Source: an uncultured Chromatiaceae bacterium (GTDB taxonomy: Bacteria > Pseudomonadota > Gammaproteobacteria > Tenderiales > Tenderiaceae). From it: 64,000 bases of DNA. This document shows, one piece after another, positions 4,323 to 52,520 of this stretch. The translations under genes and the position numbers were made by a program. The stretch spans positions 30,283 to 94,282 of the forward strand of contig CAMTXZ010000031.1 of the NCBI GenBank assembly GCA_947085765.1. The letters run 5' to 3'. Each line of letters begins with the position of its first letter. The stretch's first letter is position 1. A model generated the notes under the pieces. That model did not search any database. It had not been told where the DNA came from and saw only the letters and a list, made by a program, of their open reading frames with translations.

Positions 4323-5003
4323 ATGACTGAATTGAAAGATCGAATTGAAGATGTTCTTTCCTTGGTGGAACAGAATTTTGAATTTTTCCATGTTGGGATG
4401 TTTTTTGATGATTACGCAAAGCGTAATGATCTCTCATCAAAGGTTGTACCAATCGAACTATCTCTTGAAGATGAAAAAGTGTTTAGGCCGGGTGATATAG
4501 TCAAAGATTCATTGCGTGACTATTTTATAAAAGACAGATCGACCGTCTTTGGTTACATGGTCGCATGGAATGCATTTCGTGGAATCGGCATGGCAATGAA
4601 GGAGGGACTGCAAGACAATCCAAACCTTAAGGATTTCATAAAGAAAAAGCTCGGGAACAGATATGAACATTATCACGCCATTTTGAGTTTTATTAGAAAT
4701 GTGTTGTCGCACAACATACACGACGAAACACAGCTGAAAGAACAAAACTACAAAGATACCCGCACATATTTTGTGAGGGATGTTTGTTCAACAGGAGTTG
4801 CAACACTTTCCATTAACTATGCCGATGATTTTCCAGGAACGAATCTTCCAAGTGGCTATGGATTCAATCTTGAAGTTAATTTCAATTTATTAAATCCTGG
4901 AAAACGTTTTATTGAGGTTATTTCTGAATCGCATTTATATATGTTTTCTGAACTTTGCTTCATTTTAGTTAAAGCATTTCGGAACGAAGCGCAGCCAAGC
5001 TGA
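4323..5003 (+). CDS. Hypothetical protein with HEPN-like Rx4H motif (candidate Abi/RNase-type effector)
   Basis: ORF 4293-5003 (TTG at 4293, ATG at 4323). Motifs NRYEHYH and FIRNVLSHN (R-x4-H) flanked by hydrophobic residues, at about nt 4691-4711. AT-rich codon usage unlike flanking core genes. Confidence 0.4.
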   Translation: MTELKDRIEDVLSLVEQNFEFFHVGMFFDDYAKRNDLSSKVVPIELSLEDEKVFRPGDIVKDSLRDYFIKDRSTVFGYMVAWNAFRGIGMAMKEGLQDNPNLKDFIKKKLGNRYEHYHAILSFIRNVLSHNIHDETQLKEQNYKDTRTYFVRDVCSTGVATLSINYADDFPGTNLPSGYGFNLEVNFNLLNPGKRFIEVISESHLYMFSELCFILVKAFRNEAQPS

Positions 5004-5732: not shown

Positions 5733-7403
<1,671 letters not shown>

Positions 7404-7472
7404 TGCCGCGCTGGGCCGTTGTTTGAAGGTGGATTAAAACCACACCACCCGATCATTGGCCAGAGACAACAA

Positions 7473-7508
7473 AGCCCCTTTGGCATACCGTCAAAGGGGC
7501 TTTTTTAT
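7473..7508 (+). terminator. Rho-independent terminator after ettA
   Basis: Hairpin gcccctttg-gcataccgt-caaaggggc followed by tttttt. Confidence 0.7.
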
Positions 7509-7622: not shown

Positions 7623-10037
7623 CTACGACGTGACGCCACGCTGTGCAAAGCGTGCGTGCGCCTGTGTCTTTAACCACACATCCAGCTCATCGGCAGGCAC
7701 TGGGTAACTGATCCAGTAGCCTTGCGCCTGATCGCACCCCAGCTCGGCCAGTTTTTTCATCACTGCAAAACTCTCCACCCCCTCCGCTACCACCCGCAAA
7801 CCCATATTGTGACCAAGATCAATTGTCGAGCGCACGATCACCAGGTCTTCGCCGTTATCGAGCATGTCGATGACAAAGGATTTGTCGATCTTGATCTCCA
7901 CCACTGGCAACTGCTTGAGATAAACAAGCGACGAGTACCCTGTGCCAAAGTCATCAATCGATAGCCCTACCCCCATCTCATTGAGTTTTTTCAGGGTATC
8001 CATGGCACGCAGTGGATCGGCCATGATGGCGCTTTCGGTGATTTCAAAGAGCAGCTGGCTAGCCGGCACTTGCCACTCACTAATGACTTTACCGATCTGA
8101 TCAGCGAGTTGTTGATCCTGCAGGTGGGTGGCGGAAAGATTAATCGCCATGATGAGATTGACCCCGGCTTGTTGCCATAGATGCGACTGCCGCAACGCCT
8201 CCTCCAGAACATATAGAGTAAGTGGTCGGATAAGGCCGGTCTGCTCTGCCAGCGGAATAAACTCATCTGAAAACAACAGACCACGTTGTGGGTGTTGCCA
8301 ACGTACCAGCGCCTCGACGCCGGTAACAATATTCAATTTGAGATCCACTTTTGGCTGGTAACAGAGCATCAGCTCGTTGTTCTCAATAGCACGCCGCAAC
8401 TCACCCGCCAGGGCGAGACGCATGACGCTGTGCTGATCCTGCTCCGGGCTGTAGATAACAAAATCTTTGGCGGCGCGTTTGGCAACATACATCGCCACAT
8501 CGGCATGGCGCATCAACGTCGAGCTGTCGGTGCCGTGCTCGGGAAACAGCGCAATGCCGATGCTGATGCCAACATGCAGGCTATGGTCATCAACGATGAT
8601 AGGTTCATCAAGGACCGCCGCCAGCTTACGGGCGGCATTGATGGCGTCATGCTCGCCGGTGATGGCTGGCAGTACCACTGCAAATTCGTCACCACCCAGG
8701 CGCGATATTGTGTCCGATTCACGCAGTGCCGCACACATACGGATGGCCACCTGCTGCAGCACCACATCACCATAGTGATGACCGAGTGTATCGTTGATCT
8801 CTTTGAAACGATCCAGATCGGCAATGAATAACGCAACCGGCTGTTGTTTGCGTTGTGCTGTCATGACGGCATGGCGCAAACGGTCGTTCAGCAGCAGGCG
8901 ATTGGGCAATTCGGTAAGCGAATCATGCAGCGCCTGATGTTCAAGTTGCTGATTGAGCAGTGCCAATTCACGGGTACGTTTGGCAACACGCTGCTCCAGC
9001 TCCTCCTGCATCGCCTTGATGCCAACCTCATAATGTTTACGTTCGGTGATGTCGCGAACGATGGCGATATATAACACTCCTTCATCGCGCCAGAGTTCGC
9101 TCACCGCCATCTCAACAGGAAAGGTGTGGCCGTCGCGATGCCGCCCAACACTCTCCTGGGTGATGGCGCTTGTGCGTGGCGGAAAGGTGGAGTGGATGCC
9201 GTGGACCAGTAGTCCGGTCAACGGCCGGCCTATCACCTCGCTGGCTTGATAACCAAACAGCTCCTCAGCCGCCGGGTTCATCGATTCAATATCGCCCCAG
9301 CCACGAATGGTAATAATGCCATTGACCACATTGTCCATAATGGCGCGAATATGGGTTTCACCTACCACCAGCTTGGTGCGCATCAACTCCAGATCCTCGG
9401 CGAGACCGACAATCTCATCAACACTTGAACTGACCTCCAGATGCTCACCAGTACGCCCGGCAATGATTTTGCGTGCAGCACGACGCAGTTGTTGCAACGG
9501 CCGGGTCACTTGTGGCGCAATAACCGCCAGCAGTAACAGTGACAAAATTATGTAGCCGCCCGCCAACAGCATGCCACGTTGATAAGTACTCTGAATCTGC
9601 TCTTGGGTAGACGCCTCGTCATAGCCTAATTGCAGCAATGCATCCCTCCCCTCGAAGGGAACACGCAGGGCGATGTAATAAACGTTATCGCCATGATCAC
9701 CAAAAAAGAAATCTTCTTGAAATAACACATTTGCAGCGGCTCTATTGCCGGAGGAAGAGAGCGTCCGGCCCCCCTCCAGGATGAGCTTGGCATAAACAAT
9801 CCGCCCGTCGATGAGGTTCTCATCCAGGGTATCGACAATCTGCCTGGTACCACTGGTTGTAGAAAGATGGTTGGCTAGTTGATGCGCGCTATGACGCGCG
9901 GCATTAATAAACTGCTCTTGATAACCGTGTTCAACAAGCTTGAGCACCCAGCTGAACAGGATGGAGATGAGCACAGCATGAATCAGCACACCGCCAATCA
10001 CAATGTAACTCGCAAACCCCCAGCGCCAGCGTTTCAA
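7623..10037 (-). CDS. Membrane sensor with periplasmic domain, HAMP, PAS, GGDEF and EAL domains (diguanylate cyclase/phosphodiesterase)
   Basis: 804 aa. Two TM segments flank a roughly 130-aa periplasmic domain. GGDEF motif RLGGDEF, EAL region (ELMLCYQP…, DDFGTGYSSL). Confidence 0.9.
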   Translation of the reverse strand: MKRWRWGFASYIVIGGVLIHAVLISILFSWVLKLVEHGYQEQFINAARHSAHQLANHLSTTSGTRQIVDTLDENLIDGRIVYAKLILEGGRTLSSSGNRAAANVLFQEDFFFGDHGDNVYYIALRVPFEGRDALLQLGYDEASTQEQIQSTYQRGMLLAGGYIILSLLLLAVIAPQVTRPLQQLRRAARKIIAGRTGEHLEVSSSVDEIVGLAEDLELMRTKLVVGETHIRAIMDNVVNGIITIRGWGDIESMNPAAEELFGYQASEVIGRPLTGLLVHGIHSTFPPRTSAITQESVGRHRDGHTFPVEMAVSELWRDEGVLYIAIVRDITERKHYEVGIKAMQEELEQRVAKRTRELALLNQQLEHQALHDSLTELPNRLLLNDRLRHAVMTAQRKQQPVALFIADLDRFKEINDTLGHHYGDVVLQQVAIRMCAALRESDTISRLGGDEFAVVLPAITGEHDAINAARKLAAVLDEPIIVDDHSLHVGISIGIALFPEHGTDSSTLMRHADVAMYVAKRAAKDFVIYSPEQDQHSVMRLALAGELRRAIENNELMLCYQPKVDLKLNIVTGVEALVRWQHPQRGLLFSDEFIPLAEQTGLIRPLTLYVLEEALRQSHLWQQAGVNLIMAINLSATHLQDQQLADQIGKVISEWQVPASQLLFEITESAIMADPLRAMDTLKKLNEMGVGLSIDDFGTGYSSLVYLKQLPVVEIKIDKSFVIDMLDNGEDLVIVRSTIDLGHNMGLRVVAEGVESFAVMKKLAELGCDQAQGYWISYPVPADELDVWLKTQAHARFAQRGVTS

Positions 10038-10492
10038 TGGACGCTACCTTGCCAGATCACAGCAATTACCACTACGCCAGAACCAGCACTTATTTGATCC
10101 TGCCACATAAACGTGACCGTACTGGGCTGCGTACGCAGGACGCGTAACAGCGCTTGCTGATCTGTATAGACTGGCGGCTGGATACCGCTCTGACGTACCA
10201 CATTGGCAAGCAGTTGGCGTTCATACAGGGGAGCGGACATAAACAGAACTTTTTGTAAAAACACTTGGTATAGCAACGATTCAGTACGGTTGATAACTGC
10301 AATCAGGCGGCGTTGTTGCTGGGCAACTGGCAGTCCCAAAAACAGCCGACGGATTTCAATGTTGGTCAGGTTAATATTATTAGCTCCGACGTGAGTCACC
10401 AACACCAGTGAGCGGACCTCGTTTGCCACGCCGGAGGGACTGATTAGCGTCACGAACAGGATCATCACAAAGCGTGCTACAAGCCGGCTCAT
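10034..10492 (-). CDS. Hypothetical secreted/periplasmic protein co-transcribed with the GGDEF/EAL sensor
   Basis: MSRLVARFVMILFVTLISPSGVANE… has a signal-peptide-like N-terminus. Its stop overlaps the sensor start (ATGA at 10034-10037) and its start overlaps the stop of the upstream outer-membrane protein frame (ATGA at 10489-10492). Confidence 0.5.
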   Translation of the reverse strand: MSRLVARFVMILFVTLISPSGVANEVRSLVLVTHVGANNINLTNIEIRRLFLGLPVAQQQRRLIAVINRTESLLYQVFLQKVLFMSAPLYERQLLANVVRQSGIQPPVYTDQQALLRVLRTQPSTVTFMWQDQISAGSGVVVIAVIWQGSVH

Positions 10493-11564
10493 GGCAGCGC
10501 TGCACTCCATTGCAGCGCCACCTGATTAAAGCGCCGACCAAACTGATCCATGCTGGCCAGTTCAAACTTTAACGCCTGGCTGCCAGAAAGCTGGTAACGC
10601 GCTCCAACAAGATTACGATGACGCACAAACCCTGGAAGCTGTTGCAGGAAGAGACTCGCCTGCCCCTGATAACTCCCTTCGCTGCGACCATAGAGTATCC
10701 AATCATGGTTGAGCCAGTATTCTGGTTGCAGGTAGGCGTAACCGAAACCTTCGTTTTTATTATCACCGGAGGTCAGATCAAGGCGCAGATCAATCCATGT
10801 CGCCGACAGGCTCAGATGCCAAGCCCGTAACGAGGTATTGATATAACCGCCGAATATTTTTTGCGCCACATCAGTGATTCCACTAACAGACGAGGGGATC
10901 TGTACGTAACCTGCATACAGACCACTATCATCAAAAATGGCGTCTATGTTACGTCTGGATATGGCGCTGACAATCGAAAGTCGGTAATCACCCTCTTGAG
11001 GATGAAGAACATCCAACGCCTTGATGTAGCCAGGCGTCAGCTCTGGACCCAGACCGACATTCAGGGTGTAGTGAGTAATATAGGCTGCATCTTCATAGGC
11101 CGCCTCAATCACCGCGCCAGTAAGATGAGTCGGAATCACACCGCCACTATCCTCAAACTCAATCAGGCCCGGGCGATAAATGGTCGTTTGCAGATAGGCG
11201 CCATGATGGTACTTGCGATTCCATGGGTCCAGCGCACTATGCAAACGGCCGAACCATATCTGGCTACCTTGCGGGCTGACCCAACCGACCGCCAGACGTT
11301 CCAGGTCTCGCTCCTCGCCATTCGCAAGCAGCTCTGCCAGCAAGCGGGTCTGTTGATACGCAGCAGTGTAGAAAAAATTGACGGCAACAGAGGAGGCCTG
11401 CTGCTCCAGGGGGGGGGCTGTTTGCTATTCTGAGGCAGCAGGACCTCGGGAAAAACGATCATCTGCCCTTTGTAATCAGCGCAGGCAGGAGCGCTGCACA
11501 GCAGCGTCGCTGCTATACAGGCAACTACCTGCGTTAACCATTGGCAACAGACGGGGCTTTTCAT
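10489..11564 (-). pseudogene. Outer-membrane-type protein gene split by a frameshift at a G9 (C9 on the coding strand) homopolymer
   Basis: The signal-peptide ORF (MKSPVCCQWLTQVVACIAATLLCSAPACA…SKQPPPW, 11564 down to the tract) and the 284-aa ORF (to 10489) are in different frames. The downstream frame is open through the tract (…APPLEQQASSVAVNFFYTAAYQQTRLLAELLANGEER…) and closed by TAG 3 codons upstream of it. One extra G (10) or two fewer (7) would give a single roughly 358-aa secreted protein rich in aromatic/β-strand-like segments. Confidence 0.55.
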
Positions 11565-11727: not shown

Positions 11728-11764
11728 ACAAAGCGGACAAGACATCCATGCCTTGTCCGCTTTA
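11728..11764. terminator. GC-rich hairpin downstream of the VWA lipoprotein gene (possible bidirectional terminator)
   Basis: aaagcggacaag-acatccatgc-cttgtccgcttta, a perfect 11-bp stem. U-tract is weak. Confidence 0.4.
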
Positions 11765-11777
11765 TGACGTTAAATAA

Positions 11778-12953
11778 CTACAGTGGAGCGGTGATGACCT
11801 TTGCGTCTGGACCACCGGCACGAATTTTGAAGTTGTACTGTCCCGCCTGTCCTGTGGCCTTATTGGTCACCACCAGAGTGATCTTGTAGTCACCCGGTGG
11901 CAAAGGGATCTCTGCGCCACGCGTCTGGAGTGTGGTGAACTCTTTCATAACACTCTGGAAAAGCTGGGCAACATTTTCACTGCTGGGATTGGATTGGAAG
12001 GTTCCGTGGCCGGCTGTGGCGATCTGCTGTAACTCATCTTTATTAATGGCAGAACCCAGACCAATCACGTGAGTGGTCAGACGTGGATGGTTGGCGATGC
12101 TCTGTTTAGCCGCCTCCAGCGTGGTGGCCAGTGTGCCAAACTGATTGTAACTGGCGCTGGTATCGGTAATAAGTGGCTGGCTAGGTCTGCTGCTACTATT
12201 GTCAACCCAGCTGTAATTATCGGCACCGTCAGAAAAGACCAGCATCACGTACTGGTCACGTGCGCCGCTGAAGACACCTTTGTCATATTGCGATTTCATG
12301 TTTTTGGCCATCACATCCACTGCCGAATAGAGCTTGGTGAACGCACCCGGCGTGGGGGTGGGAATGGCAAGGATATCCGCTGGCTGCCAATAACGCGCTG
12401 CGCTGGGCACATCCTGACTTTGATTGAGTACCGCATCAAACCATACCATCGAAAATTTAACTTCGCCGGGACGGTTTTTCCAGAGATCAAGAACCTCTTG
12501 ATAGCTGTCACGCGCAGCGTTTTTCATTGGCACAAATGCTGGCGGGGTGTGCTGGGTCATGGAGTAGCTGGCGTCCAGCACCATGCCAAAATAGAGGTTG
12601 ACCTTAAGATCTTCGGCAGACTGGCTGAGCAGTGATTCTGTATCCGGGGGACCATCATTGACACGAATCTGAACATCAAACTCATTGGCCGCGAGTGGCT
12701 GCCCGGCATTATCCCGTACCGAGAACTGCATGATCATCTGGGTAGTACTGTTAGAGGATTTCCACGACACCGTCGGCGGTATCGGTACGCTCAGTTGCAG
12801 GCCAGATTTTGTCCCTGCACCACCCGGTGTGCCGGTGTTGCCTGGGGTGCCTGGGGCATCGGGGTTGTAACCGCCACCACAGCTGGCGAGAAGCGGCAGC
12901 ACTAACAGCGACAAAATAGATACGGGATATTTAAAACGTGATACTACAGACAT
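11778..12953 (-). CDS. Lipoprotein with von Willebrand factor type A (VWA) domain
   Basis: Lipobox LLASCGGG. Gly/Pro-rich linker (PGTPGNTGTPGGAGT). MIDAS-like motif VLDASYSM. Confidence 0.75.
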   Translation of the reverse strand: MSVVSRFKYPVSILSLLVLPLLASCGGGYNPDAPGTPGNTGTPGGAGTKSGLQLSVPIPPTVSWKSSNSTTQMIMQFSVRDNAGQPLAANEFDVQIRVNDGPPDTESLLSQSAEDLKVNLYFGMVLDASYSMTQHTPPAFVPMKNAARDSYQEVLDLWKNRPGEVKFSMVWFDAVLNQSQDVPSAARYWQPADILAIPTPTPGAFTKLYSAVDVMAKNMKSQYDKGVFSGARDQYVMLVFSDGADNYSWVDNSSSRPSQPLITDTSASYNQFGTLATTLEAAKQSIANHPRLTTHVIGLGSAINKDELQQIATAGHGTFQSNPSSENVAQLFQSVMKEFTTLQTRGAEIPLPPGDYKITLVVTNKATGQAGQYNFKIRAGGPDAKVITAPL

Positions 12954-27708: not shown

Positions 27709-30510
27709 ATGCAGACAGAACAGACAACCCGCCATACCCCCCAACCACGCCCGGACAACAGCGCACAGCTCTGCCATTGCGAGGTGATTCGCCGCAACGG
27801 CACACTCACCCATTTTAATGCCGACAAAATCAGCATCGCCCTCAGCCGTGCCTTTCTTGCCGTTGAAGGCCCGCAGGGCGAAGGGTCACGGCGCATCCAT
27901 GAGATTGTCGAACAGCTCAGCGACGAGATTGTTGCCGCGCTATTTCGCCGTCTGCCACACGGCGGCACACTGCACATCGAGGCGATTCAGGATCAGGTCG
28001 AACTGGCGCTGATGCGTAACGGCCACCACAAGATCGCCCGCGCTTACGTGCTCTACCGCGAGGAGCACGCCCGCCAGCGCGCCACGCAACAGCCCCCCGC
28101 GCAAGCGGCCCCCCTGCCTAACATCATTGGTAGCGACGGCAGCCGCGCCCCTCTCAACTTGGCACGACTCACCACGCTGATTGACGAGGCGTGCAGCGGC
28201 CTGGCCGATATCTCCAGCGAGCCGATTCTGCAGGCGACCCTGCACAACCTCTTTGATGGCATCACGGAAAAAGAGCTGGCGCAGGTGCTGGTGATGAGTG
28301 GCCGCAGCCTGATCGAACAGGAGCCAAACTACACCTTTGCCGCCGCCCGGCTACTGCTCGACAGCCTGCGTCAGGAGGCGTTGAGCTTTCTTGCCGGCCA
28401 CGCCGAGCGCGCCACCCAGGCTGAGATGACCAACCGCTACGCCGACTACTTCAGCAGCTACATCCACCGTGCCGCCGAACTGGAGCTGCTCGACAAGAGC
28501 CTGACCCGTTACGACCTGAAACGGTTAGGTGCGGCGCTACAGCCGGAGCGTGACCAGCAGTTCACCTATCTGGGACTGCAAACCCTTTATGACCGCTACT
28601 TTATTCACGCCGGCATCCACGGCAACAATAGCCGTTTTGAACTGCCACAAGCCTTTTTCATGCGGGTTGCCATGGGGCTGGCGATCAACGAAATCGACCG
28701 TGAGGCGCGGGCCATTGAGTTCTATGAGCTGCTCTCCTCGTTTGATTTCATCTGCTCAACCCCCACGCTGTTCAACTCGGGCACCCTGCGCCCGCAGCTC
28801 TCCTCCTGCTATCTCACCCACGTGCCCGACGACCTGGATGGCATCTACAGCGCCATCAAAGATAACGCCCTGCTCTCAAAATTTGCCGGCGGCCTGGGCA
28901 ATGACTGGAGCGCCGTGCGCGGTCTGGGCGCCGCCATCAAGGGGACCAACGGCACCTCGCAAGGGGTGGTGCCGTTTCTCAAGGTGGCCAACGACACCGC
29001 CGTGGCGGTCAACCAGGGTGGCAAACGTAAAGGGGCCGTCTGTGCCTACCTGGAGACGTGGCACATCGACATTGAGGAGTTTCTGGATCTGCGTAAAAAC
29101 ACCGGTGACGAACGGCGACGCACCCACGACATGAATACCGCCAACTGGATTCCTGACCTGTTTATGGAACGTGTCGGCGACGAAGCGCAGTGGACTCTCT
29201 TCTCCCCCGACGAGACCCCCGATCTGCATGACCTCTATGGCCAGCCATTCAAAAAACGCTACGAAGAGTACGAGGCCAAGGCCGACCGGGGCGAGATGAA
29301 GATCTGGAAACGACTGCCCGCCCTGGCGCTGTGGCGCAAGCTGCTCGGCCAACTGTTTGAGACCGGCCACCCCTGGATCACCTTCAAAGATAGCTGCAAC
29401 CTGCGCTATACCAATCAACACGCCGGGGTGGTGCACTCATCCAACCTCTGTACCGAGATCACGTTGCATACCAATAACAACGAGATTGCGGTCTGCAACC
29501 TCGGCTCCATCAACCTTGCCACCCATACCGGCGAGCATGGCATCGACCGCGAAAAGCTCGAACAGACCATCGACATCGCCATGCGTATGCTCGACAACGT
29601 CATCGACTACAACTACTACTCCGTACCCCAAGCACGCAACTCCAACCTGCGCCACCGCCCGGTGGGGCTGGGGCTGATGGGGTTTCAGGATGCCCTTTAT
29701 ATACAGAACATCCCCTACGCCTCAGAGGCGGCCATCGAGTTTGCCGACCACTCCATGGAGCTGATCGCCTACTACGCCATCCAGGCCTCAACCGATCTGG
29801 CGCAGGAGCGTGGCTGTTACTCCAGCTTTGCCGGCTCGCTCTGGAGCCGTGGCATCCTGCCGCTCGACTCGATTGAACTACAGGCCGCCGCCCGTGGCGA
29901 CTCGCTGGAGATGGATCGCAGCAGCCAGCTCGACTGGCACTCCCTGCGGCAGCGGGTGCAGACCGTTGGCATGCGTAACAGCAACTGTCTCGCCATCGCC
30001 CCCACGGCCACCATCGCCAACATCTGCGGCGTCTCGCAGTCGATTGAACCGGCCTTCCAGAACCTGTTTGTAAAATCCAACCTCTCCGGTGAGTTCACCG
30101 TGGTCAACCCCTATCTGGTCAAGGATCTGAAGGCGCTGGGGCTGTGGGACGAGGTAATGGTCAATGACCTGAAATATTTCGACGGTTCACTCCAGGCCAT
30201 CGACCGCATTCCCGCCCACCTGAAAGAGCGTTACGCCACCGCCTTCGAGATCGACCAGCGCTGGCTGATCGAGGCCGCCTCACGCCGCCAGAAGTGGATC
30301 GACCAGTCCCAGTCACTCAACCTCTACCTGGCGCAAGCCAGCGGCCCCACACTCGACAAGCTCTACAAACTGGCGTGGCGGCGTGGTCTGAAGACCACCT
30401 ACTACCTGCGCACACTCGGCGCCACCAAGATGGAGGGCAACAACCGTCAGACAGTGGCCGAACCAGCAGCCTGTTCGATCCTGGACCCCTCCTGCGAGGC
30501 GTGCCAGTAA
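27709..30510 (+). CDS. nrdA: Class Ia ribonucleoside-diphosphate reductase α subunit with extended N-terminus (two ATP-cone-like regions)
   Basis: 933 aa. An N-terminal ATP cone (VIRRNGTLTHFNADKISIALSRAF…) is followed by a second degenerate cone, then the RNR catalytic barrel (…NLCTEI…). Confidence 0.95.
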   Translation: MQTEQTTRHTPQPRPDNSAQLCHCEVIRRNGTLTHFNADKISIALSRAFLAVEGPQGEGSRRIHEIVEQLSDEIVAALFRRLPHGGTLHIEAIQDQVELALMRNGHHKIARAYVLYREEHARQRATQQPPAQAAPLPNIIGSDGSRAPLNLARLTTLIDEACSGLADISSEPILQATLHNLFDGITEKELAQVLVMSGRSLIEQEPNYTFAAARLLLDSLRQEALSFLAGHAERATQAEMTNRYADYFSSYIHRAAELELLDKSLTRYDLKRLGAALQPERDQQFTYLGLQTLYDRYFIHAGIHGNNSRFELPQAFFMRVAMGLAINEIDREARAIEFYELLSSFDFICSTPTLFNSGTLRPQLSSCYLTHVPDDLDGIYSAIKDNALLSKFAGGLGNDWSAVRGLGAAIKGTNGTSQGVVPFLKVANDTAVAVNQGGKRKGAVCAYLETWHIDIEEFLDLRKNTGDERRRTHDMNTANWIPDLFMERVGDEAQWTLFSPDETPDLHDLYGQPFKKRYEEYEAKADRGEMKIWKRLPALALWRKLLGQLFETGHPWITFKDSCNLRYTNQHAGVVHSSNLCTEITLHTNNNEIAVCNLGSINLATHTGEHGIDREKLEQTIDIAMRMLDNVIDYNYYSVPQARNSNLRHRPVGLGLMGFQDALYIQNIPYASEAAIEFADHSMELIAYYAIQASTDLAQERGCYSSFAGSLWSRGILPLDSIELQAAARGDSLEMDRSSQLDWHSLRQRVQTVGMRNSNCLAIAPTATIANICGVSQSIEPAFQNLFVKSNLSGEFTVVNPYLVKDLKALGLWDEVMVNDLKYFDGSLQAIDRIPAHLKERYATAFEIDQRWLIEAASRRQKWIDQSQSLNLYLAQASGPTLDKLYKLAWRRGLKTTYYLRTLGATKMEGNNRQTVAEPAACSILDPSCEACQ

Positions 30511-30603: not shown

Positions 30604-31731
<1,128 letters not shown>

Positions 31732-31892
31732 CGGGAGAATACCCAGCAAGAATATCGCCAGGCTATTCTCACCATCGACATCCGCTCAAACACAGCAAGA
31801 TCCGGGTCGCGGATGCGTGTTTAACTTTTTATATTTAATCGGTACAACACATTTTTGTTGTGCGGAAAATAAACTATGAGAGGTTTCGTACA

Positions 31893-32039
31893 ATGTCTGC
31901 ACTATCAAACAAGGTTGCCATTATCACTGGGGCAAGCTCCGGGATCGGTTATGCAACAGCCAAGCTGTTCGCCCGAGAGGGCGCCAACCGCAACTTGACA
32001 CACTCGTTGAAGAGATCATCCATCGGCGCTTCTTGCTGA
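31893..32039 (+). pseudogene. Remnant of a short-chain dehydrogenase/reductase gene (N-terminal 30 aa intact, then frameshift/deletion)
   Basis: MSALSNKVAIITGASSGIGYATAKLFAREGA is a canonical SDR TGxxxGIG start; the frame then derails (NRNLTHSLKRSSIGASC*). The adjacent +1 frame reads …LDTLVEEI…, typical of the next SDR segment. This indicates an internal deletion. Confidence 0.5.
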
Positions 32040-51733: not shown

Positions 51734-52520
51734 AATTTTTCACTAAGATCTCTTCAACCTCATTCCATGTGGTTTTGAAGCCTGAGATATGACGCTTCAC
51801 TGATAATGTTTGGACTGTAAAGTCTTTTGATAATAATTCGATGACGTCTTTGCAGGCACGATATGAGAACAGGAATTTAACACCTTTGCTATTCAAGTCA
51901 TACAAGCCTTTAAAGAGGACTGGTAAATTTTCAATATTAAAACTCCCAGGACCATATTCGCCAGTAAACTTCTCTGACTTTGAATACGGTGGGTCTATAT
52001 ATACAAAATCCCCTTCCTTTAGTTTTCGCAAGGTTTCAGTATAATCAGCAACAATTATCTCAGTGTTATAAAGCTTTTTTCTTGCCAAGTTAAACACATC
52101 TTGGGAGGGAAATCCGCCAGTTCTAGAGCCTCTTGGCACATTAAATTTACCTGCTTTATTTGTGCGATACACACCATTAAAACAGTAACGATTAAGATAT
52201 AAGAAACGCACCGCACGTTCTGCTTTACTCAGCGCATCCGGATCAAGCCCTCTTATCCTATAATATTCATCATCAGTATCAGGAATTTGGATCAGACTCT
52301 CCCGAATATTTTGATTGACCTTTATCTCACTCAAAGCATTAATCAATTCAAAGTTTATATCTGACAATAAAGCCTCGTAGACATTCACCTCAAAAAACAG
52401 ACATGCCGAACCGCAGAATGGCTCAACATAACGTTCGAAAGTTTTTGGAATACTTTGTGTTAACACAGGCAGAAGCTTTCGTTTACTACCTGCCCATCTT
52501 ATTAACGGTTTACTTTGCAA
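51726..52520 (-). CDS. Dam-family (D12 class) DNA N6-adenine methyltransferase, first gene of island operon
   Basis: 264 aa. IRWAGSKRKLLPVL, EPFCGSACLFF (motif I), YIDPPY (motif IV DPPY). Confidence 0.85.
   Translation of the reverse strand: MQSKPLIRWAGSKRKLLPVLTQSIPKTFERYVEPFCGSACLFFEVNVYEALLSDINFELINALSEIKVNQNIRESLIQIPDTDDEYYRIRGLDPDALSKAERAVRFLYLNRYCFNGVYRTNKAGKFNVPRGSRTGGFPSQDVFNLARKKLYNTEIIVADYTETLRKLKEGDFVYIDPPYSKSEKFTGEYGPGSFNIENLPVLFKGLYDLNSKGVKFLFSYRACKDVIELLSKDFTVQTLSVKRHISGFKTTWNEVEEILVKNYE

Follow-up and report, generated by a model that had tools for sequence, protein, structure and literature searches.

The window analysed here, a stretch of 64,000 nucleotides (64 kb) from an uncultured proteobacterium, carries on its minus strand a three-gene operon whose first gene, encoding a protein of porin fold, is broken into two reading frames at a run of nine identical bases. 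The features of the locus are as follows.

11778-12953, minus strand: upstream lipoprotein gene, 391 aa, with lipobox LLASCGG and faint VWA similarity
11731-11762, minus strand: strong terminator-like hairpin followed by UUUGUUU, just past the upstream lipoprotein gene
10489-11564, minus strand: whole porin-family gene, 358 aa with a C10 run, in two frames in the window
11163-11564, minus strand: first ORF as it stands, 133 aa, comprising a signal peptide, 22 native residues, the PPP codons and 81 out-of-frame codons
11409-11417, minus strand: C9 homopolymer, read as G9 on the plus strand, at which the frame breaks; C10 is the length that keeps the frame
10489-11424, minus strand: barrel-encoding frame, open from just past a TAG (11427-11425) to the TGA at 10491-10489
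10034-10492, minus strand: small secreted protein, second gene of the module, 152 aa, whose ATG overlaps the porin stop as ATGA
7623-10037, minus strand: membrane sensor, third gene of the module, with a conserved N-terminal (periplasmic) domain and HAMP, PAS, GGDEF and EAL domains (Pfam)

An initial annotation of this DNA had described a G9 tract at 11409-11417 that splits an outer-membrane protein gene into two frames, and the sequence bears this out: the plus strand reads GGGGGGGGG at these positions, hence C9 on the coding strand. A frame that begins with the ATG at 11564 encodes a typical Sec signal peptide (MKSPVCCQWLTQVVACIAATLLCSAPACA/DYKG) and translates the run as CCC CCC CCC, the three prolines named in that annotation, at codons 50-52. 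The frame had been said to terminate soon after the tract; in fact it continues through 81 further codons to 11163. The other frame is, as described, shut by the TAG at 11427-11425 and open across the tract to 10489. Its endpoint was thus given correctly, while the 284 codons assigned to the remainder are those of the ORF that gene callers place from the first TTG, at 11343 (P0054, 284 aa, lacking the signal peptide); from the run to the stop there are 306 codons. The earlier expectation that ten or seven Gs would fuse both frames into a protein of about 358 aa held when the run length was rebuilt in silico, with C10 yielding 358 aa and C7 357 aa, and with C8 and C11 yielding 99-100 aa as against the 133 aa of the C9 in the window. 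The tract is placed such that gain or loss of a single base toggles the frame, C10 and C7 being in frame and C8, C9 and C11 truncating the product at 99-133 aa.

In addition to its signal peptide, the 358-aa product has an antiparallel beta-barrel, closed and of about 16 strands, that can be superposed on porins of known structure. The porin fold is well established and places the product among the surface-exposed or surface-modifying determinants; a channel role is putative. Searches of Pfam and NCBIfam placed the protein in no porin family even at E-values up to 5, and compared with OprP and the general 16-strand porins (PDB 2o4v, 5mdo, 3a2s, 1e54) its sequence identity is only 8-10%. Unlike those proteins, the family to which it belongs has invariant motifs of its own (W..GR.H and WN.K.HHG.YLQ) and an unusual C-terminus, LQWSAALP, that lacks a terminal aromatic residue. 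The porin is encoded by 147 genome hits and 366 metagenome hits.

The 152-aa secreted protein encoded next to the porin matched no Pfam or NCBIfam entry and, in a sequence search of the PDB, returned spurious matches only; the fold predicted for it is similar to a single lobe of PstS-type phosphate-binding proteins. The sensor carries an N-terminal region of 225 aa that is conserved beside the porin and the small protein across loci, and its output varies among these loci, being a histidine kinase, a hybrid kinase or, as in the PAS-GGDEF-EAL protein of the window, a GGDEF-EAL module. In 77 of 80 distant loci the porin gene precedes those of the small protein and of a sensor that shares this N-terminal domain. 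This three-gene envelope module (window 7623-11564; loci L007-L086) is unannotated and occurs in uncultured Gamma- and Betaproteobacteria. At the far end of the operon, between the convergent GGDEF-EAL and ABC-F (EttA-like) genes, lies a 14-bp perfect hairpin with flanking A- and T-runs (7471-7503, AAAGCCCCTTTGG...CCAAAGGGGCTTT TTTATT) that resembles a bidirectional terminator.

Upstream of the porin, the hairpin at 11731-11762 folds with -28.2 kcal/mol (z = -6.7; none of 200 shuffles folds as well), a structure that a simple terminator scan had missed. As this hairpin, the ATGA overlap and the two genes that follow show, the porin gene is the first of its own transcription unit. The earlier description, in which the gene leads an operon that also encodes a periplasmic protein and a c-di-GMP sensor (here HAMP-PAS-GGDEF-EAL), accords with this arrangement. 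The lipoprotein beyond the hairpin, for which database searches returned faint VWA matches only, stands outside the conserved module: it is kept only in the closest relatives and is absent next to the porin in 80 of the 80 distant loci. Among the homologs collected, P0003 (438 aa) contains an internal near-duplicate of ...FLDHEERDIERLA.GWVTADDTRVWFG... when compared with its 391-aa relative P0004; the duplication probably arose in that record as an artefact of assembly or of a repeat.

When the hypothetical fusion made by C10 served as query, it recovered a protein (P0001) at 100% identity over all 358 residues. Two independent read-set assemblies of the same strain encode this protein, namely L001 (ERR3478689, 6730 bp) and L002 (ERR3478688, 1981 bp), which are identical to the window over 99.97% and 99.95% of their sequence, respectively, the sole gap in each being C10 versus C9. 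Across the three same-strain assemblies, then, the run is C9 in the window and C10 in both others. A third same-strain contig that covers another part of the window (L089, 5314 bp) differs from it by one SNP and no indel, and the same-strain comparison as a whole (L001, L002 and L089; about 12 kb) comprises 2 SNPs and 1 indel, with runs of 5-6 nt identical in 53 of 53 cases. The two SNPs fall at 10804, where the window agrees with ERR3478688 and not with ERR3478689, and at 29256, where the window differs from ERR3478688. From this pattern it follows that the consensus of the window is not simply the majority sequence of either sample, and that sub-strain diversity exists.

By exact look-up of flanking proteins of 391, 158, 933, 556 and 476 aa, the strain was found only in ERR3478688 and ERR3478689, and a scan of JGI metagenomes for the exact flanks with a tract of any length returned no match. 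The exact 133-aa product has no other occurrence among about 15 billion proteins, and the broken 284-aa product (P0054) was seen on one NCBI contig only, of 121,388 bp and presumably the one from which the window comes. The presence of C10 in two same-strain assemblies fits a simple indel error and a real length polymorphism alike.

The origin of the run can be traced through close relatives. Four sister sequences from four samples (L003-L006; 94-97% nucleotide identity) have CAG ACC CCA CCC CTG (QTPPL) at this place and read ACCCCACCCC, and the nearest outgroup (L172; 63% amino acid identity) has GTT CCA CCG CTG and reads GTTCCACCGC; all of these relatives encode intact 358-aa proteins. Orthologs had been proposed earlier as a check on the idea of a phase-variable switch, and this check speaks against a conserved switch, as the sisters combine ACCCCACCCC with unbroken genes. 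In the lineage of the window, two A-to-C substitutions in ACC CCA CCC C made the C10 run (QPPPL), the first (ACC to CCC) replacing Thr with Pro and the second (CCA to CCC) being synonymous. Since C10 matches the 10-nt length of the ancestral stretch, C9 is the derived state, a deletion of one base. The PPP sits in the least conserved segment of a 31-member family alignment, which links the first strand (GEFIPFP) to the strand DFFYSA, and CCC is an ordinary proline codon here, accounting for 29% of Pro codons. G/C runs longer than 7 nt are absent from 81 orthologous genes (87.7 kb). Neither the sisters nor the outgroup nor these 81 orthologs show any upkeep of the repeat across related lineages, and by these comparisons the poly-C run is evolutionarily young and private to the strain.

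Within the window, the run is unusual for its effect and not for its existence. It is the longest G/C run present, the next being G7 and C6, and it is the single G/C run of at least 8 nt in 64 kb, where dinucleotide-preserving shuffles lead one to expect 0.8 runs of nine; at least one G9/C9 occurred in 43 of 100 such shuffles (mean 0.8). By this measure the window has no excess of long repeats over compositional expectation, one G9/C9 run lacks significance in a sequence of 64 kb, and an argument from the improbability of the tract was dropped. The coincidence of the tract with a frame break in a conserved gene, on the other hand, is not chance: among the 16 runs of at least 7 nt in the window, the addition of one base substantially lengthens the open frame at the C9 only (from 311 to 359 codons).

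The other 15 of these runs break no frame, and apart from the C9 no homopolymer-linked gene break was found in the 64 kb; the runs of 5-8 nt in the window all look sound. A generally indel-prone assembly was rejected as an explanation, the sites flagged by a whole-window scan proving to be ordinary gene features. The candidate break at 27737 is a gene start, that at 31443-31852 is a spurious overlapping ORF within an intact RNR beta gene, and that at 51736 is an ordinary 8-nt gene overlap. On the plus strand at 31893-32039 lies a 48-codon remnant of the N-terminus of a short-chain dehydrogenase (MSALSNKVAIITGASSGIGYATAKLFAREGAN...) that ends prematurely; the identical sequence in the same-strain contig L089 marks it as real and not as an assembly error.

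Elsewhere in the family, G/C runs and frame breaks are found near the start of the porin gene in a handful of loci. An ortholog in an NCBI bin (L009, bin nzgw582, 5771-7011; SPAdes node coverage 4.6) is independently broken at a different poly-C run, a C7 (6015-6021) just ahead of the mature N-terminus (GCC CCC CCG AAT), and one extra C would repair the gene. Its counterpart on a JGI contig (L090, 268-1560), 96% identical to it, has C8 at 563-570 and an intact gene. The next relative of this pair (L008, 86% nucleotide identity) has no run at that place, which makes the run of L009 and L090 young as well. In a genome of 40% GC, L023 has a G9 (4835-4843) seven nucleotides 5′ of the porin ATG, in the ribosome-binding-site region, and in L086 a C11 (5582-5592), some 44 nt 5′ of the likely ATG, abuts a -10-like TACACT. 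In L093 a G8 (203-210) lies about 290 nt upstream of the porin ortholog. Among about 130 independent orthologs, the frame is broken in L009 and possibly in L170/L171, which share one sequence; by our own estimate of the background rate, one or two broken genes in such a number look unremarkable for draft metagenome bins. In L170 (1773-2961) and the identical L171 (SRR28401816/7), the ortholog P0014 (298 aa) has no in-frame start, and the frame of the N-terminal part (ATG at 1773 to TGA at 1988) is not that of the signal peptide and barrel, which is open from 1852. The zone of overlap contains no long homopolymer, and the arrangement may reflect a genuine frameshift at the 5′ end or else a start of an unusual kind.

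Counts of G/C runs within 300 bp on either side of the start, taken over de-duplicated loci, give these scattered cases a statistical frame, with the proviso that the hypothesis of recurrent tracts was formed after the data had been seen and that the p-values are nominal. Runs of at least 8 nt lie in the porin 5′ zone in 3 of 115 cases as compared with 1 of 826 for all other genes (p = 0.0065), and in 3 of 116 as compared with 1 of 423 when the control consists of operon-first genes (p = 0.033). With the latter control, p is 0.12 for runs of at least 9 nt and 0.09 for runs of at least 7 nt. In the discovery set, two of the three runs of at least 9 nt are near a porin start; the 80 JGI loci of the independent hold-out contain none of at least 9 nt and show no significant enrichment.

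A rival reading of these observations is that the gene is a true contingency locus, at which slipped-strand mispairing would reversibly and at high frequency flip the porin between ON (C10, C7) and OFF (C9, C8, C11) and would switch the envelope-sensing operon along with it, for example in escape from phages or toxic solutes that enter by the porin. We judge this improbable. A G/C run of 9-10 nt towards the 5′ end of the coding region of a gene for a surface protein, here a porin, is indeed placed as in evolved switches, assemblies of one strain do give both C9 and C10, and the two substitutions that built the run both extend it, one of them (CCA to CCC) without changing the protein; moreover, Neisseria genes for surface determinants with G/C tracts of at least 8 nt are typical strong candidates for phase variation (PMC5084427). 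Yet the run is missing in every sister, in the outgroup and, for the second case, in L008, so that nothing maintained it, and the window holds no excess of such runs. The initial annotation had found a phase-variable switch and a homopolymer indel equally compatible with the sequence; the comparative data support the one-base indel and do not support an evolved and maintained phase-variable locus. Evidence from across the family falls on both sides. The broken and intact genes at C7 and C8 in L009 and L090, the G9 at the ribosome-binding site of L023, the C11 beside TACACT in L086 and the nominal enrichment in the 5′ zone (runs of at least 8 nt, p = 0.0065 to 0.033) would suit a family of switches, but the hold-out of 80 JGI loci is without runs of at least 9 nt and without significant enrichment, the stricter control gives p = 0.12 (at least 9 nt) and p = 0.09 (at least 7 nt) for a hypothesis formed post hoc, and one or two broken genes in about 130 independent orthologs are, on our estimate, seemingly nothing out of the ordinary for draft bins. 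It is accordingly doubtful, and in our view a shade more so than for the window gene by itself, that the porin family repeatedly and independently gains 5′ G/C homopolymers acting as phase switches in free-living groundwater, soil and sediment bacteria, be it in coding sequence (the window strain, L009/L090), at the ribosome-binding site (L023) or in the promoter region (L086), for example under phage pressure. Recurrent phase variation is here a possibility, and an unlikely one, rather than a finding.

A quite different reading would have the frame restored in a fraction of the C9 products by recoding, either because tRNA-Pro slips by -1 on the ribosome at C CCC CCC or through stuttering of RNA polymerase, so that the split gene would be functional as it stands. 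In formal terms the C run matches the heptamer X XXY YYZ, and by the sequence a -1 shift at the last CCC would lead into the frame of the barrel. Recoding is nevertheless highly improbable. An ordinary C10 allele, in frame, exists in the same strain, no shift site is conserved, and the orthologs are single-frame genes without a slippery run, L009 and possibly L170/L171 excepted; transcriptional slippage documented in bacteria concerns A/T runs (PMC6260861). We consider it probable instead that the C9 is an incidental indel, a one-base contraction from C10 to C9 of a young, strain-private run in the variable linker directly behind the signal peptide of the porin gene, with no maintained phase-variation device behind it.

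A G/C run 10 bases long is by its nature liable to strand slippage, in living cells as well as during sequencing and assembly. For the incidental contraction we favour, the course of events would have been short. Two A-to-C substitutions turned ACC CCA CCC C (QTPPL) into the functional C10 allele (QPPPL), and a single slip at C10, either in the cell or during sequencing or assembly, would have produced C9. That the event was incidental rests on the lack of conservation of the run. An error in the assembly consensus is favoured by the occurrence of C9 in one of three assemblies and by the difficulty of consensus calling at runs of at least 10, homopolymers of this length being still error-prone in consensus sequences (PMC9262707). 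A real allele is favoured by a window that is otherwise not indel-prone, by the two SNPs, which represent real microdiversity, and by the finding that homopolymer tracts of at least 8 nt are typically variable in length in cells (PMC5084427). On balance, C9 may well be a real slippage allele, incidental in nature and coexisting with C10 in the natural population, and a consensus error seems the rather unlikely source.

In a cell carrying it, the C9 allele would be translated into the signal peptide, 22 native residues and PPP, followed by 81 junk codons, and translation would end about 670 nt before the next gene, the start of which overlaps the porin stop (ATGA). The predicted outcome is loss of the porin, the barrel ORF being left without a signal peptide. 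Lost translational coupling at the ATGA, together with polarity, would presumably also lower the amounts of the downstream PstS-like protein and of the GGDEF-EAL sensor.

Events of this type are already known, and the novelty of the present one is low. It resembles the homopolymer indels of draft and metagenome assemblies (Sereika et al. 2022, PMC9262707) in being a one-base contraction in the longest G/C run, in splitting a gene into adjacent frames and in having independent same-strain assemblies that carry the in-frame length. It differs from that error pattern in that the 64 kb hold no other homopolymer-linked break. Poly-G/C phase-variable surface genes have been described in Neisseria, Haemophilus and Campylobacter, including the coding tracts of nalP and mspA (PMC3723659), the contingency loci of C. 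jejuni (PMC3025981) and genome-wide predictions of phase variation (PMC5084427). Like these loci, the window gene encodes an outer-membrane protein and has a G/C tract of 8 nt or more towards the 5′ end of its coding region, a change of one nucleotide in either direction toggles its frame, and assemblies of one strain give two lengths. Unlike them, its tract is not conserved in sisters and has no companions in the form of a tract excess in the window, and the organism is an uncultured, apparently free-living proteobacterium. A further parallel lies in Mycobacterium tuberculosis, where homopolymer frameshift variants associated with ESX-1 arise often without classical contingency loci (PMC11898584). 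These variants would share with the window gene indels in ordinary tracts, coexisting ON and OFF alleles and the absence of a dedicated, conserved repeat architecture, and differ from it in the class of gene affected.

For annotation, the locus should be read as an intact 358-aa porin-family gene whose consensus is one C short, and neither as two genes nor as a decayed pseudogene. The most useful by-products of the analysis are this corrected gene model, the second case at C7/C8 and the recognition that the porin forms an unannotated module with the PstS-like protein and the sensor. Repeat-mediated phase variation is known mainly from host-adapted pathogens. If the C9 is real, a newly formed 10-base run would be sufficient for ON and OFF alleles of an outer-membrane channel to coexist in a natural population and, by polarity, the c-di-GMP signalling operon would be ON or OFF as well. 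If the recurrent 5′ runs of the family hold up, repeat-mediated phase variation would extend to uncultured environmental bacteria. The tract aside, the operon constitutes a widespread, unannotated envelope module, in which a porin-fold protein and a PstS-like protein of half size accompany a sensor of exchangeable output, and it is worth study in its own right.
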